From Candidatus Thorarchaeota archaeon (GTDB lineage: Archaea; Asgardarchaeota; Thorarchaeia; Thorarchaeales; Thorarchaeaceae): 64,000 nucleotides of DNA. The position numbers and the translations under genes were made by a program. Under the pieces are notes generated by a model. That model was not told the DNA's origin. It did not search any database and saw only the letters and a program-made list of their open reading frames with translations. Of the stretch, positions 21,010 through 62,257 are shown in pieces (positions within the stretch are counted from its first letter, which is position 1; each line of letters starts with the position of its first letter). Where the stretch lies: contig DXJO01000008.1 in NCBI GenBank assembly GCA_019057475.1, positions 1-64,000 of the forward strand, written 5' to 3'.

Positions 21010-21173
21010 GTCTTCAGTGGTATCACCTAGATGGTGGGCATGCAGGAATAATCTGCTGCCCTTTCTCTGAGAGTGCGGGTCATCGATGAAAGTCCAAGGG
21101 TTGTGGGAGTGCGCTTCGTGGACGCTACTCCCGCAAGGACTTCCATCTCCAAGGGATGTCATGATTCAACCTT
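21010..21173 (+). repeat. Structured non-coding repeat, copy 1
   Basis: 96-nt core 21078-21173 matches 22235-22330 with 10 differences; long stem GATGAAAGTCC/GGACTTCCATC, inner TGTGGGA/TCCCGCA, upstream hairpin GGGCA/TGCCC. Confidence 0.85.
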
Positions 21174-21328
21174 TCATGCCCATTTCGGAGGTTCTAGTTG
21201 ACAGAGGGCGCATGTGGGTTTTCTAAGGGGTGCAGTTTATCGCATTTGGTTTCAGCTAATCACAACCTCTCTCTTTGGACGATACAAGAAATCTAGCCAA
21301 GAATGCACCGATCACGAGTACCGTGCAA

Positions 21329-21868
21329 CTATGACGGTTCCAATACATCTAGATATGTTAAGAAATGGCTTAGGAGATTCTCCAGGTCCTCTACTTTCTT
21401 TACTCCGGTAAGAACGAGCTTGCCTGAACCAAACGCTAGAACCGTCATTCGCGAGTTTCGCTTGTGGAAAATTAGTCCCGGAAAGGTTTCAGGGATATAG
21501 GTCATTTGATCATAATAGCATTCTGACAGCTTTTCAATGTCTAGCTCCCTTGCCAGGTTTGCAGTGGCTACAATATTCCATACTGCCAGCTTGAAATCGT
21601 ACTGTTCTATAATGCCAGCCTTCTCTAGTTCTCGAAGGACTGCTTTCTTTGCTTCATCTATTTCCTCAAAGCTCTTTGCCCCGGCAAACGCAATAATCCC
21701 GGATTGGTAGAATATGACAGCGATATCTGGACTCTCGAGCCGAAAGGATAGATTGCTGCTTACAAGGCTCTTTCTCTTTACGTGGAACAACCTACTAATA
21801 AGCCCTAAATCGAGTTGAAGCCCTGTCCTTATTGCTCCGAGGATGCTCTGTATCTCACATACAACCAT
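21329..21868 (-). CDS. tbp: TATA-box binding protein paralogue (N-terminal repeat degenerate)
   Basis: Second repeat WNIVAT...YIPETFPGLIF...FGSGKLVLTG; first repeat only partly recognisable (GAKS retained). Confidence 0.85.
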   Translation of the reverse strand: MVVCEIQSILGAIRTGLQLDLGLISRLFHVKRKSLVSSNLSFRLESPDIAVIFYQSGIIAFAGAKSFEEIDEAKKAVLRELEKAGIIEQYDFKLAVWNIVATANLARELDIEKLSECYYDQMTYIPETFPGLIFHKRNSRMTVLAFGSGKLVLTGVKKVEDLENLLSHFLTYLDVLEPS

Positions 21869-22168
21869 GGTGAGAGTTCTCCAATTGGCTGGTCAATCCA
21901 AATATGTTTCTAATAGTCTGCCGGTGAAATGGCATTTTAAGGCGAATGAATGGTTCTGACCATTGATGTTCAGTTCTAGATGCAGGGCATCAGCTTGAAA
22001 AAAAACTCGAAATCGCGTTTCAGACATTCCTATATCAGGCAATGACTGTATCTCAAGAACCACACGCAAAAAGGAGTTTACATCATGGTAAAATGGCATC
22101 GCTGATGCTCCGAAACAGCATAAGCCGTTTATGGACGGATGCAGGAAATGATGAACTTAATGAAACAT

Positions 22169-22330
22169 GTCTTCAAGGAGATTAGCAGATGGGAGCCAAC
22201 AGGGCTGGCTTGGTTCCCGTTTTCTGAGATTGGTGGTCATCGATGAGAGTCCAAGGGTTGTGGGAACGCACTTCGTGAACGCTACTCCCGCATGGACTTT
22301 CATCTCGAAGGGATGTCGTGATTCAGCCTT
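22169..22330 (+). repeat. Structured non-coding repeat, copy 2
   Basis: See copy 1; stem GATGAGAGTCCA/TGGACTTTCATC, upstream hairpin GGGAGCCAA/TTGGTTCCC. Confidence 0.85.
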
Positions 22331-22500
22331 ATGTTCTCATACAATGAAATCGATTTGGTCCTAGACTACTCACTAGACGCCATTCTCATGAAAACGGCCT
22401 AAGCTTGGAATTCTCCGGATCAAATCGGGGCAACAGAGATGCAGGAAGCTCTTTGAAGAAGGAAATCGTCAACAAGCATGCGCGAAAGTAGTGATTGCTG

Positions 22501-23022
22501 ATGAGGATTGAAATCGTCAACGTTGTGGCAACTTCAGACATTGGTGAAAGCATCGATCTTGATGAGATTTCTCGGATGCCACAAGTTATTTACAATCCTT
22601 CAAAGTATCGCTGTGCCTATTTCAAGGATGATGGAATGCAAGCCAAGGTTTCCATATTCCCCTCTGGGAAGATGATTGCGGTAGGAGCGAAGAGTGAAGA
22701 AACTGCGCGAAGAGATCTGCTACACGTAACTCAATTATTGGGCGTCAACATAGGTACGATAAAGGTCGAGATTCGAAATGTCGTTGCTACTGTGGATCTA
22801 GAAACTGCTATCAATCTTGAAGCTCTTCAAGACGTGGTTCCAGGAATTATCTATGAACCAGAACAGTTCCCTGGCGCAATCTTCAGGCCTGCGCGTCATC
22901 CTGTGACAGTCCTGATTTTTGGTTCAGGTAAGCTGGTCCTGGCAGGCTTGAAGACTTCTGAGTCGTTGTCTGATATAGTGCAGAATATTGTTCAAGAACT
23001 AAACCTAAGGGATTTCGCATAA
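22501..23022 (+). CDS. tbp: TATA-box binding protein paralogue
   Basis: IVNVVAT...IFPSGK..GAKS; IRNVVAT...YEPEQFPGAIFR...IFGSGKLVLAG. Confidence 0.92.
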   Translation: MRIEIVNVVATSDIGESIDLDEISRMPQVIYNPSKYRCAYFKDDGMQAKVSIFPSGKMIAVGAKSEETARRDLLHVTQLLGVNIGTIKVEIRNVVATVDLETAINLEALQDVVPGIIYEPEQFPGAIFRPARHPVTVLIFGSGKLVLAGLKTSESLSDIVQNIVQELNLRDFA

Positions 23023-23086
23023 ATTATGACTTGATTCGCGAGATCCCCACACATACTATTCACTTTGACCTGACAGCTAATGTGAA

Positions 23087-24556
23087 CTAATCGTTTGAAA
23101 GTTCTTCTTGAATTGATCTAAACTGATCCAAAGCAGATTCCAGGTTTTCAATAATGTCAGCGGCTATTACCTCAGGTTCAGGTAAGCTATCAATATCCTC
23201 AAGACTCTCATCCTTTATCCAGAGAATGTCAAGGTTCGCCTTGTCTCGTTGGATGATTTCATCATATGTGAATCTTCTAAAGCGTTCTGTTTCAGTACGA
23301 TTATATCTGTTGGATGGATTATAACACTCTATGAACTCTACAAGGTCCTCATACACCAAGGGACTGACTATCAACGTAAAGTGTTTGTTTGTTCTCAAAT
23401 CGTATATCCATAGTTCTTTGGTCCATGGTGTTTCACTAGCTGGTTTTCTATCGAAGAATAGGACATTCGCTTTCACACCTTGCGCATAGAACACCCCTGT
23501 AGGGAGTCTTATCAGCGTATGCACATCACATTCAGCAAGTAATTTGCGTCTGACTGTTTCTCCTGCTCCTCCCTCAAATAGTACGTTATCCGGCACAACA
23601 ATTGCTGCCTTACCCCCTATCTTCAATAAACTCTTGACATGCTGCAGAAAATTGAGTTGCTTATTTGTCGTTGTAGCCCAGAAATCTGGTCTTTCATAAG
23701 TCAGTGATGTCTTAGTGGCCTGCCCTTCTGCATTCATGATTTTGATACTACTTTTTCTACCAAAAGGCGGATTAGTTAGAACGATGTCGAAATGCTCTCC
23801 AGGATGCGACATGAGACTATCCTTAACAGCAATAGGTCCTTTATTCTCATAATACCCACCAATTCCGTGCAAATACAAGTTCATGAGGCAGAGTCTAGCT
23901 GTTTCTGGTACAAGCTCCCATCCCTTGAATGTCTTCATCTTTAAGAACTCTTTCTGGTCCTTGTCTAGCTTATATTGTGAAGAAAGAAATCCATGACCTG
24001 CCAGAAAGAAGCCTCCTGTACCACAAGCTGGATCACATATTGTCCTATTTGGCTCTGGTTGTATTACTTCAACAATGGCTTTAATGAGTGGTCTAGGAGT
24101 GAAATACTGACCTGCCCCACTCTTAATATCCTCTGCATTCTTTTGAAGCAGACCCTCATAGATATCGCCCTTAACATCTACCTTCAAACCCATCCAGACT
24201 TCTCCATCGATTAGATTATTCAGTCGTTTCAACTTTGCTGGATCTTGAATCTTGTTTGATGCACGTCTGAAAATATCTCCTAAAATTCCAGCCTCTTTGC
24301 CTAGTTTGTCAAGAACATGTCTATAATGTTGTTCAAGATCAACACCATCAAGATTTCTTAATGACTCCCAATTAAAACCTGAAGGAATAATGGATTTTCT
24401 ATTGTATGGAGGCTTAGTCTGTTCATCAGCCATCTTGAGGAATAGGAGATACGTCAGTTGTTCCACATAGGCGCCATAACTAACTCCATCATCTCTTAAG
24501 ACATCACAATAATTCCATAATCTTTGAACAATTGAACTCGCATTATTTCGACTCAT
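23087..24556 (-). CDS. hsdM: Type I R-M N6-adenine methyltransferase
   Basis: GQYFTPR, DPACGTGGF, TNPPFG. Confidence 0.96.
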   Translation of the reverse strand: MSRNNASSIVQRLWNYCDVLRDDGVSYGAYVEQLTYLLFLKMADEQTKPPYNRKSIIPSGFNWESLRNLDGVDLEQHYRHVLDKLGKEAGILGDIFRRASNKIQDPAKLKRLNNLIDGEVWMGLKVDVKGDIYEGLLQKNAEDIKSGAGQYFTPRPLIKAIVEVIQPEPNRTICDPACGTGGFFLAGHGFLSSQYKLDKDQKEFLKMKTFKGWELVPETARLCLMNLYLHGIGGYYENKGPIAVKDSLMSHPGEHFDIVLTNPPFGRKSSIKIMNAEGQATKTSLTYERPDFWATTTNKQLNFLQHVKSLLKIGGKAAIVVPDNVLFEGGAGETVRRKLLAECDVHTLIRLPTGVFYAQGVKANVLFFDRKPASETPWTKELWIYDLRTNKHFTLIVSPLVYEDLVEFIECYNPSNRYNRTETERFRRFTYDEIIQRDKANLDILWIKDESLEDIDSLPEPEVIAADIIENLESALDQFRSIQEELSND

Positions 24557-25897
24557 TCACACTAACCTCTTTTGCACCGACTGCTTTTCTTTTTTGATTC
24601 TACTAAGTAAGGCTTCAGCTGGTTCATCCTTTGCATTCTGTTTAACCAACTGCCCTCGAAAAGCTGAGCGGAGAATTGAGTGTTTCAAATTCTCGGCATA
24701 CTGATGACTCTGTTCAAGATTTCTAAGAGAATTAGAGGCTACCGATAAGTGACGATCAAGAGTATCTACAATCACCTGCTGTTCTGCTTGTGGTGGAATT
24801 GGCACTTTCGTGCTACGAAGACGGTTACCTGTAATAGCATTAAATGTGGTTCCTGTGCTTTGTCGAATAAAATTGTTCTTTAGTGCACGAAATAGATTGA
24901 GGGTGAACGAGGTTTGAGTGCTGTCTTTTGGTCTAACAGCAGCTAATCCCCGTCCTATACAGGCTCTTTCAGGACAGATATTTGTATCTCCAACAGGAGC
25001 TCTTACTGAAAGGAGCACATCTCCTTTTTCAGCAATTCTTATCGGTTCACTACACCATCGGTCAATCTTCGGGTATAATAATCCAAATTCTTTGCTTCCT
25101 TGGAAGAAAGGTAGCCCAATCCCATCTTTGTTATAGGTTGAAGATGGTGGCGATTGGCCGAGTATGATATCAAACGCATCGCCAGCTCTTTTCCATTCCC
25201 ATGAATCCGGGAGCCGCTCTGGTGCTGATTCAGAATGCTGAACTGGTGGGTATTGATTCGATTTTCTCCATTTGGCTGTTAAATCTCCTCTGAATGCGCT
25301 TCGAAGAAGAGAACTTCTGTATTGCTCTGCATTCACCTTGCTTGCAGATAGTGATCTCACACCTGCATCCAATCTACCAAAGAGTTCGTCAATTTTGGAA
25401 ACGATGCGTCTTTGTACATTAAGGGGTGCTAAGGGAATTGAAAGGTTTGAGAGTTTTGTGGCATTCACATTGGGCTGTCCAATGCCTACCTTGCTTTGAC
25501 TGATTTGAATCCAATAGAGCTGGGACTGAAAGTAATAATAAACGTATTTTTTGGAAATCAAATCATTTAAGATAACGCGGATAAGATAAGAGGCGAATAC
25601 AGACTCTGGAATGTGTGATGGGATCATATAGCTTTTGCCAACGGTAGCTCCTGTTCTCGCAAATACTATATCCCCTTCATCAAGCAGGTATTTTGAGATT
25701 TTGTCATCATCTATACTGCAATATGGAACAGTTTTCCAATTCACTTTTCCATCTTGGATGTCTGTAATCCTAAGCATATGTGGTCCTATTGGTTTTTCAT
25801 CTGCACTTGCTGTGTAACCATAATGAATCTTATTTGAAATTTCTCCAATGCGTGTCCATATCCATGAATTTGGAATATCATATTCCTCGGAACTCAT
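24557..25897 (-). CDS. hsdS: Type I R-M specificity subunit
   Basis: Two TRDs, each followed by P(L)PPL.(E)Q..IV and L..AFRG.L conserved regions. Confidence 0.95.
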   Translation of the reverse strand: MSSEEYDIPNSWIWTRIGEISNKIHYGYTASADEKPIGPHMLRITDIQDGKVNWKTVPYCSIDDDKISKYLLDEGDIVFARTGATVGKSYMIPSHIPESVFASYLIRVILNDLISKKYVYYYFQSQLYWIQISQSKVGIGQPNVNATKLSNLSIPLAPLNVQRRIVSKIDELFGRLDAGVRSLSASKVNAEQYRSSLLRSAFRGDLTAKWRKSNQYPPVQHSESAPERLPDSWEWKRAGDAFDIILGQSPPSSTYNKDGIGLPFFQGSKEFGLLYPKIDRWCSEPIRIAEKGDVLLSVRAPVGDTNICPERACIGRGLAAVRPKDSTQTSFTLNLFRALKNNFIRQSTGTTFNAITGNRLRSTKVPIPPQAEQQVIVDTLDRHLSVASNSLRNLEQSHQYAENLKHSILRSAFRGQLVKQNAKDEPAEALLSRIKKEKQSVQKRLV

Positions 25898-28695
25898 TGC
25901 ACCAGCACCTCATTAAGGTCTTCCAAAATTCTATTGAACTCCTCGCCAAATATCTGAAAGGCACGATATGCACCGCCTTTATGTTGAAATGGAACATTCT
26001 CGAAATCTTCAATTTCAATACTCAACGATTGAGCGACATGGTCCCTTATCATCTCTAACCATTCCAACTGCTCAGAAGTAAACTCTTTTCCACGACGTTC
26101 TTGCTCAGTCAACCAGTCATTGAACCTCTCTTCAACTCCTTCGTAGAATGGAGCTAAATCTTCACTTTCACCCAATGCATATCTGATGAGCGATATGATA
26201 TCTGTCAATAGCTTCCTAGCACCGGCCCCATGCACTCTTGACTTCTCAATCCTTTCATAAGCATCCCAGAGAAGTTTAGAAGTTAGACTGTATGGAGGCT
26301 TCTGCAATACCTCTGCAAGTTCTTTGATTGCTTCATAGGTCAGGTTTCTCTGTCCATATGGCTTACTGTATATAATCTGAAGTGCAAGTAATTCGTCCTT
26401 GTTTTCTTCAATGAAATTCTTGAAGCTGCTAACGATTTCTTTTGCTCGTTCTGTCGAAGCCTCATTAAATCCTGCATAGAGTACTTCGTCTCGACTTATA
26501 GTGTCAATAGTTTGTTCACTTCGCTTCTTAATCTCAATCAATATATGTCGAAGTTTGGGCCTGTCAAATGGTTTGCACCCTATTTTCACAAGGGCTTCTT
26601 TTGCCGCTTCTTGTTGTCCCTCATCTGGTTCAACTACATCAAACATTTCTTGAGCCTTTTCTATATGCTTGTCAGGGTCTATTGCATCAAGAAGACCATT
26701 AACAAGATCATTGAGGGATCTACCATCAGATGCTTTCGCCATTTCCTTTTCATCATTAGATGAAATCTTCTCATCTAACCGAGAAAGTCTACTTGCTAAT
26801 GATGATATACTGTCTTCATCCCTCTTTCCTAAAGCGATATGATTCAGAAGCTGCTCAAACGAAACATACGGTTTCCTTTCCAAAGAACGTGAATCGGTCT
26901 TATCATGCTCTGTTACTCCCACCGCATCAACTATCACAAAGTGTGTCTTGTGTGAAGTATCAGGTGTCACACTCTTCATTTCAGTGGTTGGTATGACACG
27001 TGTACCTCGCCCTTTCATCTGTTCAAAATACACTCGGGATTTCACATCTCGCATGAATAATAGACACTCAACGGGTTTGATATCAGTCCCAGTTGATATC
27101 ATGTCTACTGAAACAACAATGCGAGGGTTGTATGAATTTCTAAAGCTCGCAATTAATCGCTCAGGGCTTTCTCCTGTTGTCTTGTACGTGATTTTCTTGC
27201 AGAATTCATTCCCCTTTCCGAATTCCTCTCTGACGATATGTAGAATATCTTCAGCATGAGAGTCATCTTTAGCGAAGATGATGGTCTTTGGGACATGAGT
27301 TCTTCCTGGAAAGATCTCAGTGAACAACCTGTCTTTGAATGTCTTGATTATCAAACGAATTTGATCTGGTGCCACCACATCTCTGTCGAGCTGTTTCGAA
27401 TCATATTCTAGGTCTTCATCCAGTTGCTCCCATCTCAATTTCCGTGTCAGTTTATCTCGCTTATCGATATACTGCTTGGCCTCAACCTTACTTCCTTTTT
27501 CAGAGATCTGTGTTGAAATCCTGTAGATATCATAGTCCACATTCACTCCATCGGCGACAGCCCTTTCATGTGAGTATTCAGTAACCAGATTCTGTTTGAA
27601 GAATCCGAGAGTCTGCTTGGAAGGTGTTGCTGTCAATCCGATCAGGAATGCATCAAAGTATTCTAGAACCTGGCGCCAAAGGTTGTAGATTGATCTATGA
27701 CATTCGTCAGTGATAATGAAATCGAAGGTTTCTATTGGAATATCTGGATTGTAGACAACATCTCGTGGATCGCCATCAAGAGCCATTTCGAATTGGGATT
27801 CTTCTTCATTCTCAGGATCCAATTCTTCCCCTCGTAACATCGAGTATACTCTTTGGATGGTTGATATGCATACACGACTCACCTTGTCAATCGTGTTGGA
27901 TTTAAGATGTTGAACATTGTACAGTTCGGTGAACTTTCTCCCATCATCCGGAGTTTTATACTGTTGAAACTCTTGATACGTTTTTATACCCAAATTCGTT
28001 CTGTCAACAAGGAATAGAATTCGTTTCGCTTTAGCGAATTTTACTAGTCGGTAGCATGATGTGACAGCTGCGAAAGTCTTACCACTCCCTGTAGCCATCT
28101 GGATTAATGCTCTGGGTTTGGACTCGGAGAAAGACGTTTCCAAATTTGTTATTGCATCAATCTGGCAGTTCCAAAGGCCAGTTTCGATTAAATCAGGTAG
28201 CTCCTGTAACCTACCTCGAAGTGTGTCCTCTTGGGAAACCCATTCCTGGAGAGTTGCAGGTCTGTGAAATGCAAAAACTCGTCGTGATCGTGATTCAGGG
28301 TCTCGGATATCCCGGAAGAAGGTTTCTACACCTGTACTCTCGTAAGAGATGGGTAAGGGCTTTTGAAGGCAAGCAACATAATCTGGAATATTGTCCATGT
28401 ACTTCTTGGACTGGATTGCTACTCCCCCAAGAGTAGTACCAACGGGCTTGGCCTCCACTACTCCGACAGCCTTGCGTTCGACGAAGAGCAAGTAGTCTGC
28501 GGCATCCCTGCCGAGTGGAAACTCCCTGACTGCAACTCCTAGGGCGGCTCCCAGGTTTAATTCCCTGTAATCCTGAATGACCCACCCCGCGGTTGCTAGG
28601 AGTGTGTCAATATTTTGCCTTGCCTTCTCTTCGGGTTTCAGTGTTTTGCCATCCCCCGTATGGAGATACTCTCGTTTACCTATGTCTGAGAACAC
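25894..28695 (-). CDS. hsdR: Type I R-M restriction subunit (EcoEI-like; start may be near 28640)
   Basis: ADYLL...VEAK nuclease, MATGSGKT, DECHRS, GLTATP, QMKGRGTR. Confidence 0.95.
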   Translation of the reverse strand: MFSDIGKREYLHTGDGKTLKPEEKARQNIDTLLATAGWVIQDYRELNLGAALGVAVREFPLGRDAADYLLFVERKAVGVVEAKPVGTTLGGVAIQSKKYMDNIPDYVACLQKPLPISYESTGVETFFRDIRDPESRSRRVFAFHRPATLQEWVSQEDTLRGRLQELPDLIETGLWNCQIDAITNLETSFSESKPRALIQMATGSGKTFAAVTSCYRLVKFAKAKRILFLVDRTNLGIKTYQEFQQYKTPDDGRKFTELYNVQHLKSNTIDKVSRVCISTIQRVYSMLRGEELDPENEEESQFEMALDGDPRDVVYNPDIPIETFDFIITDECHRSIYNLWRQVLEYFDAFLIGLTATPSKQTLGFFKQNLVTEYSHERAVADGVNVDYDIYRISTQISEKGSKVEAKQYIDKRDKLTRKLRWEQLDEDLEYDSKQLDRDVVAPDQIRLIIKTFKDRLFTEIFPGRTHVPKTIIFAKDDSHAEDILHIVREEFGKGNEFCKKITYKTTGESPERLIASFRNSYNPRIVVSVDMISTGTDIKPVECLLFMRDVKSRVYFEQMKGRGTRVIPTTEMKSVTPDTSHKTHFVIVDAVGVTEHDKTDSRSLERKPYVSFEQLLNHIALGKRDEDSISSLASRLSRLDEKISSNDEKEMAKASDGRSLNDLVNGLLDAIDPDKHIEKAQEMFDVVEPDEGQQEAAKEALVKIGCKPFDRPKLRHILIEIKKRSEQTIDTISRDEVLYAGFNEASTERAKEIVSSFKNFIEENKDELLALQIIYSKPYGQRNLTYEAIKELAEVLQKPPYSLTSKLLWDAYERIEKSRVHGAGARKLLTDIISLIRYALGESEDLAPFYEGVEERFNDWLTEQERRGKEFTSEQLEWLEMIRDHVAQSLSIEIEDFENVPFQHKGGAYRAFQIFGEEFNRILEDLNEVLVQ

Positions 28696-29334: not shown

Positions 29335-31017
29335 CTAGATTCGGATGTATCCGGAATACCACAGCAGGAAGAGTGACACTAGTGACAGGATTATCATTAT
29401 GGCCATGACAATTAGGTTCGTAAACTTCTTGTCCATGAACTCTTTTTTGATTTCATCCTTGCTGACAATCCCTGCAATAGCCTTGACTGCGTCTTCACCT
29501 AGCACTGCTCCGTAGTACGCAATGCTTCGCATATGCTGCTCAAGATATGATTGAAACACTCCGGTCAAATGAGATATCCTTATGATACCAAGCACCAGGT
29601 AAAGAATGAACAAGACCGGAAACGAAATTAGAATGATGTTCGCCGTAGCAGGACTTAGCGGTTGCGCGACTATTCCGACCAATGCGCCTAGAATTGCTCC
29701 GAAACCACCGTATGTCGCGCTATAGAGAACCTGGTTTAGGCTTAGTCTCAAATTAATATCCTTGTCAGTCCAGTCCTGCAGGAATTCCATGAACTTCTGC
29801 CTTGTTTCCAAGATTGCGGATACGACCCGTTCGACATATAGATTGAAGGCTGCTTCGGCTGACTTCCTCACGGATTCGACGTTATTCAAGAAGTCTAGAA
29901 TGGACGAGGAGTTGAGTGCAACGGTCTTCCTCGACATCAGCACCTTGGCCGCGTTCATGTCGTCAAATGTCCAGTGATAGAAATCGATGACAGGTTTGAG
30001 GATATCTTCAACATGTCGACCTTCAGCTTTGACTTCTCCATCTTCAAAGACCACAATACCTTCAATGGTCTTTGCGCCGATGAATTTGATGTTCCAGCTA
30101 TTCCAGTCCCCTGTGTTTGCCCTATATGAGGCTAGAGCCAGGAGAGCATAGAGCATTTCCAAGGATTGGAATAGATCCTTAACGGCGTTGAGGTCGTCCC
30201 TTGTTTCGTCGAAATCAACCTCGAACAGGTCCGGAATCACAGCGCCTTCCTGGAGGTTGGCTGAAACGACCTGTGAGAAAAATCGGTACCTCTCATGCAT
30301 TTCTTCCAAGGGTCCCAATCTAATAACTTCAGCCTTGACCTCTTCGTCTGTCAACCAGATGTCTGTAACAATGAGGTGTCTGCTGGCTCCTGTGTATTCC
30401 AACTCACCAACCGCTAGGATTAGTTTTCCCGATCCATTCAGAGATCGAGATGCTATCTCAGTATGCCTGCTTGATTTCATATACTGCAGAAGACCATCCA
30501 CTGAAACGAATGTAAGGACCTCTGCATTAATTCCAGCGGATTCCCAGCGTTCCTTGACAAAGTCCTCAATTGGCTTCTTGGATATTGAAGTCACGACTCT
30601 CCATTCCACTCCAAGACCTGACAGCTGGCTTGAATCGTTCCTAAGCAAGTTTGCCCATTTCTGAGGCCTATGAATAGCTCGCCTGTCAACCACTGAAAGC
30701 AGCAGTTTTACTGAATCGAATCCTACAGCATCACTGATATCTTCTCTTGCCCGTGCTGACAGTGTATCGACACTGATGGCATTGAGTGTTGGAGTTAGAG
30801 AAACAGTAAGTACTATGTTTTGATCGAGTATCATGTGCGCGTTGAATTCAACGCTTAGTTCGTCCATCTCCTTGTGCAACGATAATAGCCCATCCACTTG
30901 GTCGGCTAGAGTCATGGAGTCAGCTTCAAGCACGGCTGTGAACCTCTTGTCATCTTCTGTTAGTTCGGCCCATTCAATTGCGATATACTCGCGAATCGCC
31001 TCCAGTTTCGTCATCAT
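29335..31017 (-). CDS. Hypothetical protein: large soluble N-terminus, helical region, 3 C-terminal TM helices
   Basis: 560 aa; TMs YGGFGAILGALVGIV, IILISFPVLFILYLVLGII, LIVMAIMIILSLVSLFLLW; starts 5 nt after the NdpA-like gene. Confidence 0.75.
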   Translation of the reverse strand: MMTKLEAIREYIAIEWAELTEDDKRFTAVLEADSMTLADQVDGLLSLHKEMDELSVEFNAHMILDQNIVLTVSLTPTLNAISVDTLSARAREDISDAVGFDSVKLLLSVVDRRAIHRPQKWANLLRNDSSQLSGLGVEWRVVTSISKKPIEDFVKERWESAGINAEVLTFVSVDGLLQYMKSSRHTEIASRSLNGSGKLILAVGELEYTGASRHLIVTDIWLTDEEVKAEVIRLGPLEEMHERYRFFSQVVSANLQEGAVIPDLFEVDFDETRDDLNAVKDLFQSLEMLYALLALASYRANTGDWNSWNIKFIGAKTIEGIVVFEDGEVKAEGRHVEDILKPVIDFYHWTFDDMNAAKVLMSRKTVALNSSSILDFLNNVESVRKSAEAAFNLYVERVVSAILETRQKFMEFLQDWTDKDINLRLSLNQVLYSATYGGFGAILGALVGIVAQPLSPATANIILISFPVLFILYLVLGIIRISHLTGVFQSYLEQHMRSIAYYGAVLGEDAVKAIAGIVSKDEIKKEFMDKKFTNLIVMAIMIILSLVSLFLLWYSGYIRI

Positions 31018-31022
31018 TTAGT

Positions 31023-32027
31023 TTACTCCAGTGTGAACTCCCTTACCTCTCCCTCTATGACATGTCTATGAGGTCCCATTTCGTTCTCATTGAATCTATC
31101 TGAGAAGCTTCTGAAAGACCCGAAAAGCCGAATGTCGCCAACATAGAATTTCGCTCTCAACCCGTCAACATCGTCCGCCCGCACAAGCCCTTTTAAATTC
31201 AGGTCACCTCGAACAAGATCACGTATTTGGGGTTGAGGTGTTCGTACAACTTGGGCTATGATTTCAGTCACCTGTTCCTCTTCGATGACCCTTTGCGAAT
31301 CACCTACATGACTCGAGAACGCCTCGTACAGGCTTATGCTCTGGTCCACGGGCAGTGTTCCTCCCGTTAGTTTCAAGGCAAGCCGTCTAATCTCCGCCAT
31401 CATGTCTCTGGCGTCAACTGGTGGAACGCCTCCGAGGAAGCCGTTGAAGTACTTGGAATACGAGTTCTCTTGATACACCTTCATGTAGTAGTGAGTTGGT
31501 GCGGTTGGATGTGGATATATAGCTCCCTTCTGGTGTTTTCCAGCAAGTGGCAGCTTCTCAACTAAGTGCTCTGCTGTCAGTTCCGCGTTGTCGCCCATTA
31601 ACTCGGCGTATGATTCATCCACCCATCTAAGTTTGAAGAGTCCGATATGTCTTCGCCCAGAACGTTCAAAGCGTCCGACGAATAGGACCCCCGGGTAATT
31701 TCCTCTCATCTTCTCCGTCAGATTCTGTGCCAACCATTGACCTGTGTCGCGAAACTCCTCGGATTGATCTGGAATTATGAACCGCTGCAGCTGCTCCAGT
31801 CTGGTTCTAACACTGTTTCCATATGCATCTATAGGGTCAGATAAACCATAGGCTTTCCGAGATATGGACTGGTCAACTACTTCGGAGAAGTAGTCACTAT
31901 ATGCTTCGATTATGCTAGCATCAGATAGGAGATGCGTTCCACCGTGCTGGAGATTGTCGAAATCCCTGTTCTTATCTATGTAGTGGAAGTATAGGTACTC
32001 TATGTTCAACGAGTTCTGATTGGCCAT
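31023..32027 (-). CDS. NdpA/YejK (NA37) nucleoid-associated-like protein
   Basis: IEYLYFHYID; F..TG..LA..L...M...PG.LFV......IGLFKL; LP....HQKGAI; YSKYFNGFLG. Confidence 0.7.
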   Translation of the reverse strand: MANQNSLNIEYLYFHYIDKNRDFDNLQHGGTHLLSDASIIEAYSDYFSEVVDQSISRKAYGLSDPIDAYGNSVRTRLEQLQRFIIPDQSEEFRDTGQWLAQNLTEKMRGNYPGVLFVGRFERSGRRHIGLFKLRWVDESYAELMGDNAELTAEHLVEKLPLAGKHQKGAIYPHPTAPTHYYMKVYQENSYSKYFNGFLGGVPPVDARDMMAEIRRLALKLTGGTLPVDQSISLYEAFSSHVGDSQRVIEEEQVTEIIAQVVRTPQPQIRDLVRGDLNLKGLVRADDVDGLRAKFYVGDIRLFGSFRSFSDRFNENEMGPHRHVIEGEVREFTLE

Positions 32028-32442
32028 TCATGCGCCCCCAATTGCATTCTTTCGTGTCACACACGACAGTGTCTAAATACTCAAAGAACTGTCTTATCAA
32101 CATTTCGAAGGTTCGCGAGTACCTTTTCTTATAGAATGGGATCAACCTCCAAATTGTGCAGATTCAGGGACTTCTGCTTTTCCAAGAGCAAGCTTTGGTT
32201 GACCTCCAACCAAATGGATGTTAAGCTGCCAGTGGGGACGCCCTCGTACCAAGCCAGCAGAAGAAGTTTCCCTTTCGCCCGCGGGCGGATTCTGGTCTTT
32301 AGCATCCTAGCTCCATCCGCAGACATATTGCGGGCACTCCTTTTCGTGCGAATTTGCAGCTAGACTTCTGTGCTCATATTCAAGCACAAAGATTGCATCA
32401 GGAGTCGCCAGCGTTATTAGGGCCCCCTGCAGATATGACCTA

Positions 32443-33063
32443 ATGCCAAACATCCTCAGTGCAAGGGTTCTCAATCGGTTCGCAAAGCAAGTTCCTGAAC
32501 TCAGAGAGGCACTACAAGCGGCAAGAATGGAACTAGAGCACACGATGACACCGCCATTCGAGATGCTGATCAGATCAATCGTCTACCAGCAGTTGTCAGG
32601 AAAAGCCGCACGAACAATCCACGACCGAATGCTCGAACTCATTGGCAACCTGACACCCAAATCCGTTCTCGCGAAGACGCAAGAAGAGCTTCGAAGCGTG
32701 GGTCTCTCTAGGCAGAAGGCTTCCTACCTCCACAACATAGCTGAAGCGTTCGACAAGAAGGGGTTCCTTGAGAAGTACAAGAACGCTGAATCACTTAACG
32801 GACTGTCATCAGACGAGATCGTCAAGCTCTTTGTTGACATCAAGGGCGTGGGCGAGTGGACCGTGCAGATGTACATGATATTCGCGCTCGGGCGACTTGA
32901 TGTACTGGCTCCAAATGATCTTGGTGTACGCAAGGGGGTCATGAATCTCTATGGGCTGGAGGAGATGCCGAACCCGAAACAGGTCAAGAATCTAGCTGAG
33001 AAGTGGCATCCATTGGAAACCGTTGGCACGATTCTTGCTTGGCGTGTGCTGGAATTTGAGTAG
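32443..33063 (+). CDS. alkA: DNA-3-methyladenine glycosylase II (HhH-GPD)
   Basis: SIVYQQLSGKAA, GLSRQKASY, IKGVGEWT HhH, DVL.P.DLGVRKG, W.P. Confidence 0.92.
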   Translation: MPNILSARVLNRFAKQVPELREALQAARMELEHTMTPPFEMLIRSIVYQQLSGKAARTIHDRMLELIGNLTPKSVLAKTQEELRSVGLSRQKASYLHNIAEAFDKKGFLEKYKNAESLNGLSSDEIVKLFVDIKGVGEWTVQMYMIFALGRLDVLAPNDLGVRKGVMNLYGLEEMPNPKQVKNLAEKWHPLETVGTILAWRVLEFE

Positions 33064-33176: not shown

Positions 33177-34289
33177 TTAATACTCAAGATGGAGAAGGTC
33201 ACCAGAATACGCATACTTCTCAAGAAGTCTTCTTGCCATACGTTCTGTTTCGCCTATGTTATAGCTAGTTTCGATATAGAGTTCATTAGTTAGCCTTTGT
33301 GGGCCTCTGAATTTCTCACCATTTTGATGGACTGGTTTGGTGTTTACCAAATATCGTATTTGACCTGTGGTTACTCTCACGGGGCAGTCCCTTTTAGTAA
33401 GATGGCCTCTTTTGATGAGCCACTCTGCAGTACAAGTAAGTATTCTATGCACACGCCCCCCTTCGAACTTTTCAGAATCAACTCGAATGATCTTTGGAGG
33501 GTTGCTTGATTTCGGTGTTTTTCTTCTGCCAGATGACATCCTTTGAGTTTCTTCCGTCATAGGCTGCATCCTTGCAAACAATGGAGTGCCTTTGTAGCGC
33601 TTAAGAAGAAAATGCTTGGTTTCCTCAACTTGAATATCAAGATCTTGAAATGACATCTTCACCTCATCTTGTAGGATTCTAGATGCTGCGAGAACCTGCC
33701 TTTCTTCATCAGCAATCAATGCCTGCCAAGTGGAATGGATTGCGCCTTGCTTCCTCTTCGTTAATTCGATCTGCCTTTCTAAATGCTCAATACTCTCACT
33801 ACGTATCTGCATCATTTTCTCAGCGCATTCTTCAGGATTCATGTCTATAAGGCTAATACTCCAAATAGGATCTCTAGACCATCCCTGAAACCTGTACAGA
33901 TTCCAGCACGCACCATCGGTCGTTATACCAAGATTGATGTCAAGGGCAATCAAATAGTCAGCCAATTGCATGGTTGCATTGGAATCAATGTCAACTCTTT
34001 CTCCAAGGCGTTTTACTTCAAATGCAAGGAGATTTGTTTTCCCCTTACTGAGAGTTATGTCAATCTCACCTTTTGAATTCTTCAGCTTCACTTCAATCTC
34101 TTTCATAGAGATGTATGGTGGAGAATTCCATCCAAGTTTGTGTAGAAGGGGAATGACGAGATTATCTCTTACATTATCCTCTCGTTTTTTGCCTTTTCTG
34201 AAATCATTGGGGCGCTGCTTGATCAACTCTCTGATTTTCCTAATCTCACCAACAAGTTCTGCTTTCAAGTTTCGGGATCTCCTAAACAA
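33177..34289 (-). CDS. HsdR-N-type PD-(D/E)xK nuclease with C-terminal putative DNA-reader domain
   Basis: EDNVRDNLVIPLLHKLGW, IDITL...FEVKR, QLADY, ITTDG..W; C-terminal RYLVNTKPVH...PQRLTNELYIETS. Confidence 0.75.
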   Translation of the reverse strand: MFRRSRNLKAELVGEIRKIRELIKQRPNDFRKGKKREDNVRDNLVIPLLHKLGWNSPPYISMKEIEVKLKNSKGEIDITLSKGKTNLLAFEVKRLGERVDIDSNATMQLADYLIALDINLGITTDGACWNLYRFQGWSRDPIWSISLIDMNPEECAEKMMQIRSESIEHLERQIELTKRKQGAIHSTWQALIADEERQVLAASRILQDEVKMSFQDLDIQVEETKHFLLKRYKGTPLFARMQPMTEETQRMSSGRRKTPKSSNPPKIIRVDSEKFEGGRVHRILTCTAEWLIKRGHLTKRDCPVRVTTGQIRYLVNTKPVHQNGEKFRGPQRLTNELYIETSYNIGETERMARRLLEKYAYSGDLLHLEY

Positions 34290-34452: not shown

Positions 34453-34798
34453 GTTCTATCTCTTGATGTTGGCGGCAACCACGGTCATTACACTGGTCGC
34501 TGTAGCGTGTATCGAGGACTAATATCGAGAATCTCAGTACGGCTGCCAGAAAGACAAATATGCCGCCTAGGACTACGTTGACGGAGAGGTTAGAGGACAG
34601 TGAGCGAAGTCCCAATGTCTGGCGGTCTCGAAATTCCCGAACTGCCGAAGGAAAAGCGTCCTTGTTTCAGAAACCCGATTGTCTGTGTGGCGCTTATTAT
34701 CATTGTACCTATTGGAGGTAAGAGATGAAAAATGCCAGAGAGAAAACGCGCTTATCATGGTTTTGTTATCCCATCAAGGGTTTATGTGGGTGAGAAAA

Positions 34799-35836: not shown

Positions 35837-35855
35837 GTATTGACCTCTTCGAGTA

Positions 35856-36365: not shown

Positions 36366-36367
36366 TG

Positions 36368-36884: not shown

Positions 36885-37052
36885 CTTGATGCGCCTGTTC
36901 CAAATGACCTTGGTGTACGCAAGGGAGTCATGAATCTCTATGGACTGGACGAGATGCCGACCCCGAAACAGGTCAAGAATCTGGCTAAGAAGTGGCATCC
37001 ATTGGAGACCGTTGGCACAGTTCTTGCCTGGCGTGTGCTGGAGTCTGAGTAG
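36885..37052 (+). pseudogene. Duplicated 3' end of alkA
   Basis: Aligns with 32896-33063 through the TAG; 13 differences in the last 153 nt, 8 of them synonymous. Confidence 0.92.
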
Positions 37053-55484: not shown

Positions 55485-55646
55485 ACAACCACGCAGAGTT
55501 CTCAAGTCTGGTTTCTACTCTTTCATCTCTCCGTAGGTCCTCTCATACGTTGAGGAGTCTGAGTTGAAGAATGCCACATTGAAGACCATGTTATCAAGAA
55601 CAGACATGACTGCTGGAGACGCACTGTTCGCTGAACTGCAGGTAAA

Positions 55647-59233: not shown

Positions 59234-60199
59234 TTGTCTAGTAGTAAGTTGATGTCGGCATCCGAATCCGTGAAGCGTTTCGTCAATGGTGGCGACTGTC
59301 TTTCCGTTGGAGGCTTCACGATAAACCGAAACCCAATGGCCTTGGTCTATGAAGTACTCAGACAACGGACCAAGGACCTCCACGTTGTGATGCACTCCGG
59401 TAGTCAGGCACTGGACCTGCTCATAGGTGCCGGTCGAGTCAGTCTACTGGAGATTGCATATGGGGCAAATGGGCGGTTGGCACCCACTTGTGTCAGATTC
59501 AGGAAAGCCATAGAGCAAGGAACTCTGAAGGTCGAGGATTACACCAACTACCAGATGACTCTCAGGTTCATGGCTGGAGTCATGGGTGTTCCCTTCCTTC
59601 CAACCTATTCCTCCTTGGGCACGGACATCATAGAACGATGGGGGTTCAGTACCGACATGAGGTCGTCCAATCCTCAGCTTCCAAGGAAGAAGCTCGCCGT
59701 TACTGAAGATCCCTTCAGCGATAAGGCCAGTCAAGTTGTCCTTGTGCCAGCGGTGAACCCTGATGTCGCTCTAATCCATGCACAGAAGGCAGCTGAGGAT
59801 GGCACAGTCCGTCTGGAGGGATTGACCTTTGCAGACATTGAGCAGGCGAGGGCATCGAAGCATGTGATAGTATCGTGTGAGGAACTGGTATCTCCTGCTG
59901 AGCTCCGCAAGGAGCCGTGGAACAACAGCATTCCGCATGTTCTAGTCGATGCTGTGGTGCATCAACCCCTTGGAGCACATCCCACTGCATGCTACCTGCA
60001 TTATGACTACGACATGGAGCATCTCCTCAAATACAAGGAACTTGCAGACGATGATTACCAGTTCGAGAACTACCTGAAGGAGTTCGTGCTCGATGTCGAC
60101 TGCCATGATGACTATCTGAAACTGATAGGAACCAAGCGGCTGAAGAGCATCAAAGCTACTCCAGAACTGGGCTATGCGAGGAGGGACAGCGACCTTTGA
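59234..60199 (+). CDS. CoA-transferase subunit A (glutaconate CoA-transferase-like)
   Basis: VGGFT..RNPMALV.E, LDLLIGAG, PDVALIHAQKA..DG, GAHPT. Confidence 0.9.
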   Translation: MSSSKLMSASESVKRFVNGGDCLSVGGFTINRNPMALVYEVLRQRTKDLHVVMHSGSQALDLLIGAGRVSLLEIAYGANGRLAPTCVRFRKAIEQGTLKVEDYTNYQMTLRFMAGVMGVPFLPTYSSLGTDIIERWGFSTDMRSSNPQLPRKKLAVTEDPFSDKASQVVLVPAVNPDVALIHAQKAAEDGTVRLEGLTFADIEQARASKHVIVSCEELVSPAELRKEPWNNSIPHVLVDAVVHQPLGAHPTACYLHYDYDMEHLLKYKELADDDYQFENYLKEFVLDVDCHDDYLKLIGTKRLKSIKATPELGYARRDSDL

Positions 60200-60966
60200 A
60201 GATAGAATACTCGCCGCTTGAGATGATGGCCATTGCCTGTTCGCGCAGAATCCAGGACGACGATATCGTGTTCTGTGGAACTGGCCTTCCTCTTCTGGGG
60301 GCCATGACTGCGAAGAAGACGCACGCACCCAACTGTGTCGTGTTCTTCGAAACCGGTGCCTTGGATCCTGTACTGCTTGAGATTCCGCTGTCGGTGGCTG
60401 ATTCCAGAGTTATGCACGGAGCATCCCATAACGGGGGTCTCGCAGATGCGTTCGCTTTCATGCAGAATCGATTCTCTGGTCCCAAGGTCTTAGGGTTGCT
60501 TTCAGGGGCGCAAATCGACATGTATGGCAACCTGAACAGCACGGTCATTGGTGATTCCAACAAACCTACAACTCGCTTGCCCGGAAGCGGTGGTGCTTGC
60601 GATGTTGCCAGCCTTGTGGGCCGCACAATGATCTTTATGAAACATGAGCGAAGGCGATTTGTCGAACACCTTGATTACTTGACGAGCCCCGGCTGGTTGC
60701 AAGGAGGCACCTCACGTCAAGAAGCAGGTCTCATCCGCGGAGGTCCTGTGGCTGTAGTCACCACGCTCGGTGTCTTGGAGTTCGATGAGAAGACAAAGCG
60801 AATGTATCTCTCGACGTACTACGCGAATGCGTCTGTTGAAGAGACCGTTAAGAACACGGGCTTCAAGCTGAGTGTTTCAAGAGCCAGACAAGAACCAAGT
60901 CCAACTCCCGAAGAGCTGGATGTTCTCAGGACCGCGGTGGATCCCTTTGGACTGATTCTTGATTAA
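60196..60966 (+). CDS. CoA-transferase subunit B
   Basis: GTGLP, HAPN..VFFETG (catalytic Glu), GAQIDMYGNLNST, LPGSGG, VVTTLG. Confidence 0.9.
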   Translation: MKIEYSPLEMMAIACSRRIQDDDIVFCGTGLPLLGAMTAKKTHAPNCVVFFETGALDPVLLEIPLSVADSRVMHGASHNGGLADAFAFMQNRFSGPKVLGLLSGAQIDMYGNLNSTVIGDSNKPTTRLPGSGGACDVASLVGRTMIFMKHERRRFVEHLDYLTSPGWLQGGTSRQEAGLIRGGPVAVVTTLGVLEFDEKTKRMYLSTYYANASVEETVKNTGFKLSVSRARQEPSPTPEELDVLRTAVDPFGLILD

Positions 60967-61008
60967 TAGTCCTGCACGCCTTGTAATCTGACAGGGGGTC
61001 ACTGGACA

Positions 61009-61170
61009 GATACAAGTGCAGCCTGTATGGACTGTGGAATGTACGAACACATGTATCTGGTTGGAGCTATCCATCTTATCGATCGAACTCCTCGCGTCAA
61101 CGCTCATCAATACATCAGATGTAGAACCCGTGTGACCGCTTGTCCGCAGGGAGCAATCCGTGTCGGGGAA
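61009..61170 (+). pseudogene. Decayed 2[4Fe-4S] ferredoxin-like remnant
   Basis: CMDCGMYEHMYLVGAI...YIRCRTRVTACPQGAI; several ligand Cys replaced by Tyr/Arg. Confidence 0.55.
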
Positions 61171-61278
61171 TGCGACAGGAATGCTTCGTTTGGTAAAGGC
61201 GCAGGCACGGATTGAAGCGGCTTCTCTCAAGCGAAACATCACGAATGTTTTTTACGCATACAATCCAGGACTGACAGC

Positions 61279-61950
61279 ATGGCTGATGACTTTGGATTGA
61301 ATGTCAATCCCGAGGACGAATTGCAGGATGGCATCGTAACAGAAGACGAGCTCAGGAATCAAATGCAAAGAAAGCGAAACCGCAGCATACCTTTGGTCTT
61401 TGCTCTCGTACTGGTTTTTATTACGCCGTTTCTAGTCCCGCCTGTAGCAAGTGACATTACGTTCATCAGCACGATAGTTGTCGCTTACCCGATTTTCATG
61501 GTGGGCGTCTATCGACTAGCGAAGAGCTCGATTCTAAAGAACTTCCTTTTTGGTATCAAGATTCTGCGACGTGTGGGCCTCCCAGAACCGGTGATCACAG
61601 AGCAGTACGCCGCGACAAAGCGAGGAGCTACCCATCTGTTTGTTCTCCAGAATACGAGTTGTCTATACTTCGTCACGTTCACGCAGACTGAAATGGCTCT
61701 AACAGGGAAGATTGACGTACCCAAAACATTCTGGAAGTGGAATCCAACCGTGAGTATTGCTGGTCTGAAACTCCACAAGAGAGAAGGCCTTTTCTCAATT
61801 CCTACCCTTGAAAGGCAGTGCATCTCCGGTGAAGGGATTCTCTATGCTAGTCCATACTTGGGTACGGCGTACATGCTGCACGTTCCTGAATTCTCAAGGG
61901 AACAGCTTCTCGCCGTCGCGGAATATGTTTCTCAGCAGGTTTCAAGCTAG
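61279..61950 (+). CDS. 2-TM membrane protein, paralogue 1
   Basis: KREGLFSIPT...ISGEGILY...FSREQLL. Confidence 0.75.
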   Translation: MADDFGLNVNPEDELQDGIVTEDELRNQMQRKRNRSIPLVFALVLVFITPFLVPPVASDITFISTIVVAYPIFMVGVYRLAKSSILKNFLFGIKILRRVGLPEPVITEQYAATKRGATHLFVLQNTSCLYFVTFTQTEMALTGKIDVPKTFWKWNPTVSIAGLKLHKREGLFSIPTLERQCISGEGILYASPYLGTAYMLHVPEFSREQLLAVAEYVSQQVSS

Positions 61951-62041
61951 GAAGATTTGCCGAATTCAACGAGTTCGATTGGACCGCGAGGTGATGTACT
62001 ATTCATTCTCAGGTGCATAGAGCAGTCGAGGGTTTGAAATC

Positions 62042-62257
62042 GGTCTCATTCGGGGCGGCCCCGTAACATTGGTCACCACACTCGGTGTCTTGGAATTCGA
62101 TGGGACGACAAATCGAATGCATCTCTCGACGTACTATGAGAATGTGTCTGTTGAAGAGATTGCAAGGAACACGGGATTCAAGCTGGATGTAACAAGGGCC
62201 AAGCAGGAGCCAAGTCCAACCCCCGAAGAGGTGGATGTTCTCAGAACCGATGTGGAC
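62042..62257 (+). pseudogene. Duplicated 3' part of CoA-transferase subunit B
   Basis: Aligns without gaps to 60727-60942; 40 differences in 216 nt, many synonymous. Confidence 0.9.

Follow-up and report, generated by a model that had tools for sequence, protein, structure and literature searches.

In the genome of an Asgard (Thor-group) archaeon, ordinary conserved genes are followed by accessory genes and then by a second, diverged copy of their own 3' end or of the spacer behind it. We examined such direct repeats in the first 64 kb (the window) of the 146-kb contig C40, which belongs to the metagenome-assembled genome (MAG) G000 (3.34 Mb, 56 contigs); other G numbers denote comparison genomes. 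We call the repeated unit at such a locus the anchor, which is either the final 40-110 codons of a conserved gene or the spacer that follows it, and we call the genes lying between its two copies the cargo. We interpret the pairs as scars of additive, non-replacing recombination at accessory-gene hot spots, most likely left by a single Campbell-type crossover of a circle, and would give this reading a probability of about 0.55. The data show the insertions, the corresponding empty sites, and the allele-like origin of the repeats, and they show that the loci have neither a recombinase in cis nor a site in common. There is good support for the view that allelic DNA was inserted by homology-guided recombination and that no cis-encoded recombinase took part.

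Direct repeats behind conserved genes

A repeat search recovered all four direct-repeat pairs reported in a preliminary description of the window, with BLAST E-values of 1e-25 to 1e-57, which exclude chance for the four, and with mismatch counts identical to those first given. These are pair A (21054-21173/22211-22330; 86% identity, 10/96 mismatches), pair B (32896-33063/36885-37052; 89%, 13/153), pair C (34351-34452/36718-36819; 85%, 13/96), and pair D (60727-60941/62042-62256; 82%, 40/216). An additional direct pair, E (20934-21017/32219-32302; 73% identity), brackets a defence island of ~11 kb that extends from nrdD to alkA. The four cases had been taken as one uniform architecture, a view we had to abandon, as the five pairs do not form one class. 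B and D are true scars consisting of a gene tail, cargo, and a diverged tail; the repeat of A is a flank module, non-coding and dispersed, and that of C a gene head fragment at a breakpoint within cargo.

The excess of synonymous differences noted earlier for the alkA (B) and CoA-transferase (D) pairs was borne out. The ratio of non-synonymous to synonymous substitution (dN/dS) between the copies in frame is 0.21 for B and 0.20-0.21 for D, compared to 0.7-1.7 in the two other frames (0.7-1.1 for B). With empty-site congeners as the third sequence, private changes are about twice as numerous in displaced copies as in attached ones (72 versus 37), and the branch leading to the displaced copies bears 38 synonymous and 34 non-synonymous changes where the neutral expectation is 1:3.3 (p = 6e-8). 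Because dN/dS is ~0.2, the copies are considered formerly functional alleles of different lineages rather than fresh duplicates, in agreement with the preliminary description.

Across the loci examined in the genome, the repeats are 84-336 bp long and 73-93% identical, and the longest exact run within each pair is 12-26 bp. Right boundaries lie at or near stop codons, where sequence conservation between lineages ends. Left boundaries are sharp and motif-free, and the junctions of eight loci, when compared, revealed no common motif. The cargo has a guanine-plus-cytosine (GC) content of 0.44 versus 0.51-0.53 for the anchors. The alkA and CoA-transferase B anchor genes retain full-length frames, with the insertions at their 3' ends. 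A profile search for tyrosine recombinases (PF00589) found none on the whole 146-kb contig and none in any cargo examined. The earlier statement that integrases, transposases, and terminal inverted repeats are absent held insofar as no such open reading frame is present, but a 283-bp TnpB/IS605 derivative abuts the displaced copy of pair D. Within the window and the region of pair A there are 0 tRNAs and 0 Rfam matches at the gathering score, apart from one chance snoRNA-like match.

Matches of window DNA in five congeners are restricted to 9.2-17.3 kb and 43.5-47.6 kb, while the CoA-transferase locus (59.2-63.4 kb) matches G004 only. Because so few stretches of the window match congener DNA, we place the repeat pairs in a region that is large and flexible, where "native" has only a relative meaning.

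The CoA-transferase and alkA loci

D1 (60727-60941) is the tail of the B subunit gene of a CoA-transferase whose A and B subunits are encoded at 59234..60966 on the plus strand (Pfam CoA_trans). The cargo is a single plus-strand gene, M1 (61279..61950), which encodes a membrane protein without a match among Pfam, NCBIfam, or PADLOC families. It is followed by D2 (62042..62256, plus strand), the displaced tail, which is 82% identical to D1 and extends to its own stop codon in G004. Behind D2 lies M2 (62495..63301, plus strand), the resident positional homologue of M1; the two proteins are 34% identical (E = 4e-31), and a third copy is found at C40:66399-67297. As M1 and M2 are homologues that occupy the same position and orientation behind D1 and D2, with a period of 1315 bp, D is a stack of two diverged units, each a tail plus a membrane-protein gene. 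Such a stack is hard to reconcile with tandem duplication in place, because the tails are 82% identical with a dN/dS of ~0.21 and the M proteins only 34% identical. The complete D arrangement is present in the congener G004 at 89% identity. As possible outgroups, G011 and G017 proved too diverged (~53% identity), with no M gene downstream within the stretch fetched.

The non-autonomous TnpB/IS605 derivative (62257..62540, minus strand; 283 bp; Pfam OrfB_IS605 and Cas12f1-like_TNB) directly abuts D2 and has removed the last 25 bases of D2 in G000. It combines ~170 bp from the end of full tnpB elements (C18:13675-14889 and C31:37213-38427) with ~115 bp from their start. It is present in >40 copies in G000, many at contig ends and one at C40:82913-83196, and is common in all five congeners. 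Since the site in G004 has the D arrangement without the element, the derivative is not the cause of D; it is a later insertion that truncated D2. The tnpB-3' end of the element faces the displaced tail, and any guide RNA read outward would begin in that pseudogene.

At the second true scar, the anchor is an alkA-like HhH-GPD glycosylase gene (32443..33063, plus strand; Pfam HhH-GPD). B1 (32896-33063) comprises its last 168 bp and ends precisely on the stop codon. The displaced tail, B2 (36885..37052, plus strand), runs on into the native alkA flank, from 37053 to ~37154. This flank directly follows alkA on G067:C138 (92% identical) and on metagenome contig Ga0114919_10283143 (91%), which we therefore regard as two independent empty sites. 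The cargo begins with a gene for a 370-aa protein (33177..34289, minus strand) that has a weak match to the HSDR_N nuclease domain, below the curated cut-off, and only two distant homologues among 86 family genomes. There follow C1 (34351..34452, minus strand), an orphan 5' fragment of a Holliday-resolvase-like gene with 85% identity to C2; a PD-(D/E)XK nuclease gene (34679..35836, plus strand; Pfam PDDEXK_4); and two tandem Endonuc_Holl genes (35856..36850, minus strand; Pfam), the second of which holds C2 (36718-36819) in its 5' part. The PDDEXK_4 nuclease is patchily distributed, being found in 5 of the 86 genomes at 71-86% identity, with several copies broken, and the Endonuc_Holl genes have counterparts with 93-98% protein identity on G067:C60.

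The junction between the resolvase-like gene and B2, together with the right half of the cargo, recurs on G067:C60 at 92-97% identity. Homology to that contig begins at 34476, 24 bp to the right of C1. To the left of this breakpoint (L076:8-2313), G067:C60 carries a gene for an ATPase matching AriA/PtuA defence models (best 2.5e-21) and a second gene. As the contig shares the right half and carries other genes at the left, the sequence downstream of alkA is a defence island of mosaic structure, with C1 as an orphaned 5' fragment at one of its breakpoints. The partner of the AriA/PtuA-like ATPase is a 356-aa protein with no family match, and the two occupy the place of the 370-aa protein. Between the window alkA and the G067 allele, synonymous divergence is ~3x higher in the tail than in the body of the gene (11/39 versus 12/105 sites, p = 0.02), which fits recurrent recombination at the gene end. 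The pattern of sites that might mark a crossover at B was not significant.

We surveyed 22 alkA loci in other genera and in metagenomes and found no tail duplicates. Two candidates were set aside: a third alkA tail in G094, whose pieces on C111 and C241 each stop at a contig end and overlap, looks like one split gene, and exact 77-bp repeats spaced 177 bp apart in G069 look like an assembly artefact. G067 belongs to another genus and has its own alkA, at 71% identity, and its contigs C138 (empty) and C60 (occupied) are 92-97% identical to the window. These two contigs are probably mis-binned from a G000-like organism, in which case both states would coexist in one sample. Within G000, a third alkA allele, different in both its 3' end and its downstream region, is borne by C33. 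This contig is a patchwork of segments 87-93% identical to C40, C49, C21, C38, and C55, with 6.5 kb at 91% identity to C55; it represents either a co-binned sister strain or large diverged duplications. Downstream of B2 is a NosD/beta-helix gene. NosD/right-handed beta-helix genes (at window 37301-39796, from 63505 past the window end, and at the alkA loci of relatives) have an internal periodicity of 66-69 bp and form variable arrays around alkA across the family.

Recurrence across the genome

The preliminary description had suggested counting such pairs across the genome, and a self-comparison of G000 showed that the architecture recurs genome-wide. The fragment census identified diverged fragments of 70 genes, with 26 genes represented by their tail, 9 by their head, and 35 by an internal segment, a tail fragment being one that ends <=40 bp from the stop codon. 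Measured against fragments positioned by chance inside G000, which would give 8-15% per end, the enrichment in tail fragments is significant (binomial p <=5e-6). Seven more tail pairs with both members on the same contig were found at six loci (LarA, C44 twice, C6, C21, C23, and C51). Their dN/dS values range from 0.12 to 0.32, and the pooled off-frame controls gave 0.98. An intact gene followed by one or more orphan 3' fragments in the same orientation, with cargo between, is the arrangement at B, D, LarA, C44 (two fragments), C6, C21, and C23. The cargo at the further loci is mixed and includes uncharacterised proteins, a NosD beta-helix protein, an epimerase, GmrSD, and an aminotransferase fusion.

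The expectation that relatives would retain empty sites was likewise confirmed, at alkA and, in congeners, at four more loci. A single tail was present for C6 in 5/5 congeners, for C23 in G001, for LarA in G003, and for C21 in G006; the LarA site is occupied in G001 and G004. The junctions themselves were reproduced in independent assemblies, that of D in G004, that between the resolvase-like gene and B2 (hjr160-to-B2) in G067:C60, and that of LarA in G001 and G004. Since the junctions recur in this way, a strain-chimeric assembly, which had been named as a finding that would overturn the earlier proposal, is unlikely; the longest exact runs shared by the pairs are also short (12-24 bp).

Two of the further loci have features of their own. 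At C44:23873-26411 a two-cassette array lies behind a gene for a 355-aa protein. Displaced tails of this gene are found 3.4-3.5 kb downstream in G004:C108 and G006:C371, where the content is not the same; the slot therefore turns over from one species to another. The tail pair at C51:96425-108459 encloses ~10 kb of cargo and lies ~1.3 kb from a tyrosine recombinase gene; it may be an ordinary integrase-borne element, in contrast to the integrase-free cases.

Polarity of the copies

To score which copy is foreign, congeners with an empty site were used as the third sequence against the attached and distal copies. At LarA, the allele of the empty-site congener is 92.5% identical to the attached tail and 81.6% identical to the distal copy. 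The distal copy is odd at 30 of 34 informative sites, which are spread over its whole length, and it adjoins a native-like flank with an estimated identity of ~92%. The sole long identical stretch of the two copies is 26 bp at the stop-codon end. Judged by these comparisons, the native tail appears to have stayed on the LarA gene, with the distal copy being foreign. This contradicts the earlier proposal that a foreign end replaces the gene end and displaces the old one, which is the polarity common to homology-facilitated illegitimate recombination (HFIR), e14, and mitochondrial endonuclease genes. The LarA configuration is compatible with a single reciprocal crossover within the 26-bp identical stretch.

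At C6, the distal copy is the odd one up to about mid-repeat and the attached copy from there on (Fisher p = 0.009 for the best split, 0.047 after permutation correction). The two C21 copies are 92.5% identical and equidistant from the congener, and neither C21 nor alkA discriminates between polarities. The earlier idea that one copy of each pair would prove closer to another lineage agrees with the foreign-type distal copy of LarA; at B the relationship of the alleles is star-like.

The nrdD flank

The nrdD gene for anaerobic ribonucleotide reductase (18783..20927, plus strand; Pfam NRDD 2.9e-131) is the upstream anchor of the nrdD-alkA hot spot. Directly 3' of it is E1 (20934..21017, plus strand), a non-coding spacer module and a 73% direct repeat of E2. 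Next comes A1 (21054..21173, plus strand), a non-coding module capable of forming a hairpin and found by repeat search in four genome copies. The cargo of pair A is a gene for a divergent TBP paralogue (21329..21868, minus strand; Pfam TBP 1.5e-28) that is 31% identical to the next TBP, and A2 (22211..22330, plus strand) is 86-87% identical to A1. A second TBP paralogue (22495..23022, plus strand; Pfam TBP 1.2e-39) marks the start of an older segment of the island. This segment continues with hsdM, hsdS, and hsdR of a type I restriction-modification system (23087..28695, minus strand; Pfam N6_Mtase/HsdM_N, Methylase_S, and ResIII/EcoEI_R_C) and with genes for a 560-aa protein with no Pfam family and an NA37/NdpA-like protein (29335..32027, minus strand; the NA37 match is weak, 4e-5, and below the curated cut-off). 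E2 (32219..32302, plus strand; 73% to E1), the displaced copy of the spacer downstream of nrdD, lies just upstream of alkA. The hsd cargo between E1 and E2 has a GC content of ~0.41 versus 0.48 for the genome. Both window TBP paralogues are ~33-34% identical to the TBP encoded on C50 and are located in the flexible island beside the restriction-modification genes.

A is a non-coding element with four copies in G000, the two here and those at C51:20549-20750 and C32:19118-19263, and one further copy in the genome of another genus (G045:C223). A2 is not a local duplicate of A1, because it is nearer the C51 copy (92.9% versus 87%). We do not classify A as an RNA gene, as RNAalifold on the four copies gave a hairpin without compensatory pairs, the single-sequence z-score was -2.4, and there was no Rfam match. 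E and A occur together on C51 and on G045:C223. The latter carries E and A, at 86% identity, behind 22 bases from the nrdD 3' end, with no nrdD gene adjoining, and on C32 a truncated nrdD fragment precedes E and A. Other genera keep the order nrdD-alkA, but the two genes are 0.18, 2.5, or 6 kb apart there, compared to 11.5 kb here. Given these occurrences and spacings, E and A look like the native trailer of nrdD, and E2 and A2 look like copies of the trailer pushed out by successive insertions. The nrdD-alkA spacer of G016 has no recognisable similarity to E.

A search of five congeners for nrdD and of six for alkA recovered neither gene, these MAGs being 52-92% complete. The nrdD-alkA pair is syntenic in other genera, and the whole block may be an import or may have been lost or left unassembled in the congeners. 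Partial nrdD copies, 80-92% identical, are found at contig ends (C24:1-150, C20:9535-9636, C22:1-576, and C32:19346-19971, homologous to window 19044-19789). Two of them share a left boundary at window position 19044 and a ~12-nt motif just beyond it, and the C32 copy passes from position 19789 directly into E and A.

Proposed mechanism

In the mechanism we propose, DNA from a related lineage would arrive with a homologous anchor, either a gene tail or a spacer, together with the donor's own downstream genes. A crossover within the anchor would integrate this DNA without any recombinase encoded by the cargo. In its most likely form, the event would be a single reciprocal, Campbell-type crossover between a circle of anchor plus cargo and the chromosomal anchor, which would duplicate the anchor, leave the gene intact, and put the second copy beside the native flank. 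We infer both the circular intermediate and the involvement of host homologous recombination. Repeated events would push older copies outward and could yield the order nrdD-E1-A1-TBP-A2-...-E2-alkA as well as the nested mosaic behind alkA. The positional homology of M1 and M2 is as expected if a donor tail with its downstream gene was stacked before the resident unit. The preliminary description had offered one-sided HFIR or Campbell integration of small circles. Its core, the integration of allelic DNA, stands; of the two routes, the Campbell-type crossover fits better, because of the LarA polarity and the marginal chimera signal at C6, and one-sided HFIR is not favoured.

Several observations weigh against this proposal. 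Stretches of 100-200 bp at 82-89% identity are a poor substrate for homologous recombination. The reciprocal-chimera signal at C6, which a Campbell-type event predicts, is marginal, and eight tyrosine recombinases encoded elsewhere in G000 would in principle be able to act in trans. No empty site was found for pair A. Pair C corresponds to residues 11-43 of the Holliday-resolvase-like gene, that is, to its 5' region, and is without tail geometry. At alkA, B1, B2, and the two empty-site alleles are about equally distant from one another (89-91%), so that either copy of B may be the native one. At the CoA-transferase locus, dN/dS between D2 of G000 and D2 of G004 is 0.33 rather than ~1, and the four D tails are mosaic, with D1 of G004 equally close to D2 and to D1 of G000; ongoing conversion therefore blurs the histories of the D copies. 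Finally, the bin holds second versions of segments at 85-92% identity (C33, C32, C22, C20, and C24), and some of the "third copies" may come from a co-binned sister strain.

Alternative explanations

The pairs could instead be decayed site-specific integrative elements, similar to e14 or to integrase-less remnants of integrative and mobilizable or integrative and conjugative elements, which target 3' ends, carry a replacement end, and have lost their integrase or use one in trans. The geometry is that of e14, with icd on one side and the C-terminal pseudogene icdC on the other (PMC13626634), and elements of this kind at the 3' ends of housekeeping genes can accumulate in tandem (PMC5704250). 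Of the eight tyrosine recombinases of G000, one is encoded ~1.3 kb from the C51 pair; a tail fragment of an integrase gene is also present, and the exact stretch of 16-26 bp in each pair could act as a core. We nonetheless regard this origin as unlikely, as no integrase is encoded on the 146-kb contig or in any cargo examined and some of the cargo is a single ordinary gene of 0.55-1.1 kb. The repeats of 100-330 bp at 82-93% identity also differ from the 8-60 bp near-identical sequences expected, no motif is common to the loci, and the LarA polarity is opposite to that of e14.

One-sided HFIR of linear DNA, in which a homologous crossover brings in a foreign tail with cargo and the far end joins illegitimately inside the displaced resident tail, seems to us less likely again. 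The architecture, the absence of an integrase, the sharp and motif-free left boundaries, and the ~3x higher synonymous divergence in the alkA tail than in its body relative to the G067 allele (p = 0.02) all agree with it, and the same model was proposed for type VI secretion system (T6SS) effector-immunity arrays and rhs loci (PMC5361080). It predicts, however, a foreign attached tail and a displaced copy wholly of resident type. LarA is the opposite (30 versus 4 informative sites; 92.5% versus 81.6%), and the displaced copy of C6 is foreign-like in its left half. Where measured, HFIR is also orders of magnitude rarer than homologous recombination (PMC5361080).

A further scenario is nuclease-driven homing with a carried gene end, of the mitochondrial mobile endonuclease or RNA-guided TnpB type, in which a cargo nuclease would cut naive alleles and repair would copy the nuclease with a cut-resistant replacement tail. 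At alkA, four nuclease-family genes, one by a weak match, lie directly behind the new tail, and synonymous divergence of the tail is raised among all alleles; a TnpB-derived element adjoins D2; and mobile endonuclease genes that were inserted with a foreign C-terminus and displaced the native one are documented (PMC3630166). Yet cargo is nuclease-free at D, A, LarA, C6, C21, C23, and C40:113-119 kb, where it encodes a membrane protein, a TBP, uncharacterised proteins, a NosD beta-helix protein, an epimerase, and an aminotransferase fusion. Those nuclease genes that follow alkA resemble the content of a defence island, the corresponding module of G067:C60 lying beside the AriA/PtuA-matching ATPase. 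With the D arrangement present in G004 without the TnpB derivative and the native tail still on the LarA gene, homing is improbable as the general explanation.

A local duplication, tandem or segmental, whose copies then diverged in situ is already largely refuted and in our view highly improbable. D is formally a tandem of two tail-plus-membrane-gene units with a 1315-bp period, and the C21 copies, at 92.5% identity, are equidistant from the congener. Against this, had one of the copies decayed in place as a non-functional fragment beside an intact gene end, dN/dS would exceed the ~0.2 observed, and the 82% DNA identity of the D tails is at odds with the 34% protein identity of M1 and M2. In addition, A2 is nearer a copy on another contig than A1, the attached LarA copy groups with congeners and not with its neighbouring copy, and at B, LarA, C6, C21, and C23 the cargo has no relation to the genes next to it. 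An assembly artefact, namely a chimeric contig joining strains across a shared gene end, is the least credible of all. In its favour, short contigs of the bin bear further versions of nrdD, alkA, and other segments at 85-92% identity, and repeats form the ends of many contigs. However, exact matches within the pairs reach 12-24 bp at most, the junctions were found again in the independent MAGs G004, G001, and G067:C60, and the anchor genes have intact frames whose stops are positioned as in relatives.

Comparison with known systems

The closest parallels to these loci are the bacterial rhs, contact-dependent inhibition (CDI), and T6SS arrays. Displacement of C-terminal ends has been described for rhs (Jackson et al. 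2009, PMC2935791, as cited in PMC5361080), and recombination anchored in the conserved part of the gene has been proposed for T6SS effector-immunity arrays (Kirchberger et al. 2017, PMC5361080). There, as here, cargo and orphaned, diverged copies of a gene's own 3' end lie downstream of the gene itself, which stays intact; in our case too these fragments come from other functional alleles. New modules enter next to the gene and older ones shift downstream, no integrase is involved, and a horizontal origin is deduced; D stacks M1 and M2 as immunity genes are stacked. Unlike those arrays, the anchors here are alkA, CoA-transferase, LarA, a hexapeptide transferase, or a spacer rather than polymorphic toxins. 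The anchor proteins belong to the HhH-GPD, CoA_trans, LarA, and Hexapep families, and no toxin or immunity families were found in the cargo. Our loci also differ in having an Asgard host and, at one locus or more, a foreign copy that is distal.

The same geometry is known from e14 in icd, with its icdC remnant, although that element is integrase-borne (PMC13626634). Integrative and mobilizable elements (IMEs) and their integrase-less remnants (cis-mobilizable elements, CIMEs) are found at gene 3' ends and undergo tandem accretion (Guedon et al. 2017, PMC5704250). In common with our loci, these elements keep the gene intact and leave a C-terminal pseudogene copy at the far end of the insert, the copies differ largely synonymously, and decayed elements without an integrase, as well as stacks of them, are known. 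The loci described here differ in that there is no integrase in cis or on the contig, the repeats are long (100-330 bp) and 7-18% diverged rather than short, near-identical att cores, the cargo can be as small as one gene, no site is common to the loci, and the polarity at LarA is reversed.

Mobile endonuclease open reading frames that carry a C-terminus with them have been described in fungal mitochondria, in Allomyces atp6 and in Glomus atp6, atp9, cox2, and nad3 (PMC3630166). They share with our loci a foreign C-terminal duplication, a mobile gene, a displaced native C-terminus, and differences that are mostly silent. In the mitochondrial cases, however, the endonuclease gene is always present and was shown to drive mobility, whereas most cargo here is nuclease-free and nuclease-family genes occur only at B, where they resemble defence genes. 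Integrons and integrase-less clusters of attC cassettes are similar in having stacked, promoter-proximal cassettes separated by repeats. They differ from the present loci, which have no IntI and in which the repeats are copies of gene tails or spacers and not attC hairpins, each locus having its own. For Heimdallarchaeal mobile elements, integrations at tRNA sites have been described, and a keyword search of that paper gave no match for direct repeats or target sites (PMC8813620). Both the architecture and the mechanism are thus already precedented in bacteria, and what sets these loci apart is the use of ordinary genes and spacers as anchors, the mixed cargo, the lack of a recombinase in cis, the Asgard host, and the reversed or chimeric polarity.

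Implications for gene acquisition in Asgard archaea

It is possible, though we put it forward only tentatively, that Thorarchaeota, and Asgard archaea more widely, routinely gain genes through homology-guided integration of circles at ordinary gene ends, run by the host. This would build integron-like stacks of excisable cassettes, each a tail plus cargo, with no dedicated integrase. The mechanisms of gene flow in this archaeal lineage are poorly known, and the loci described here extend an architecture of bacterial toxin loci and decayed integrative elements to its ordinary metabolic and repair genes. For annotation, the architecture would explain many short "pseudogene" tails and would warn that gene ends next to islands can be mosaics. 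If the proposed mechanism is correct, it would constitute a testable route by which Asgard archaea add defence and accessory genes beside conserved genes, leaving these unbroken and using no mobile-element machinery, and the displaced tails would be datable scars that record the donor lineages and the order of events.

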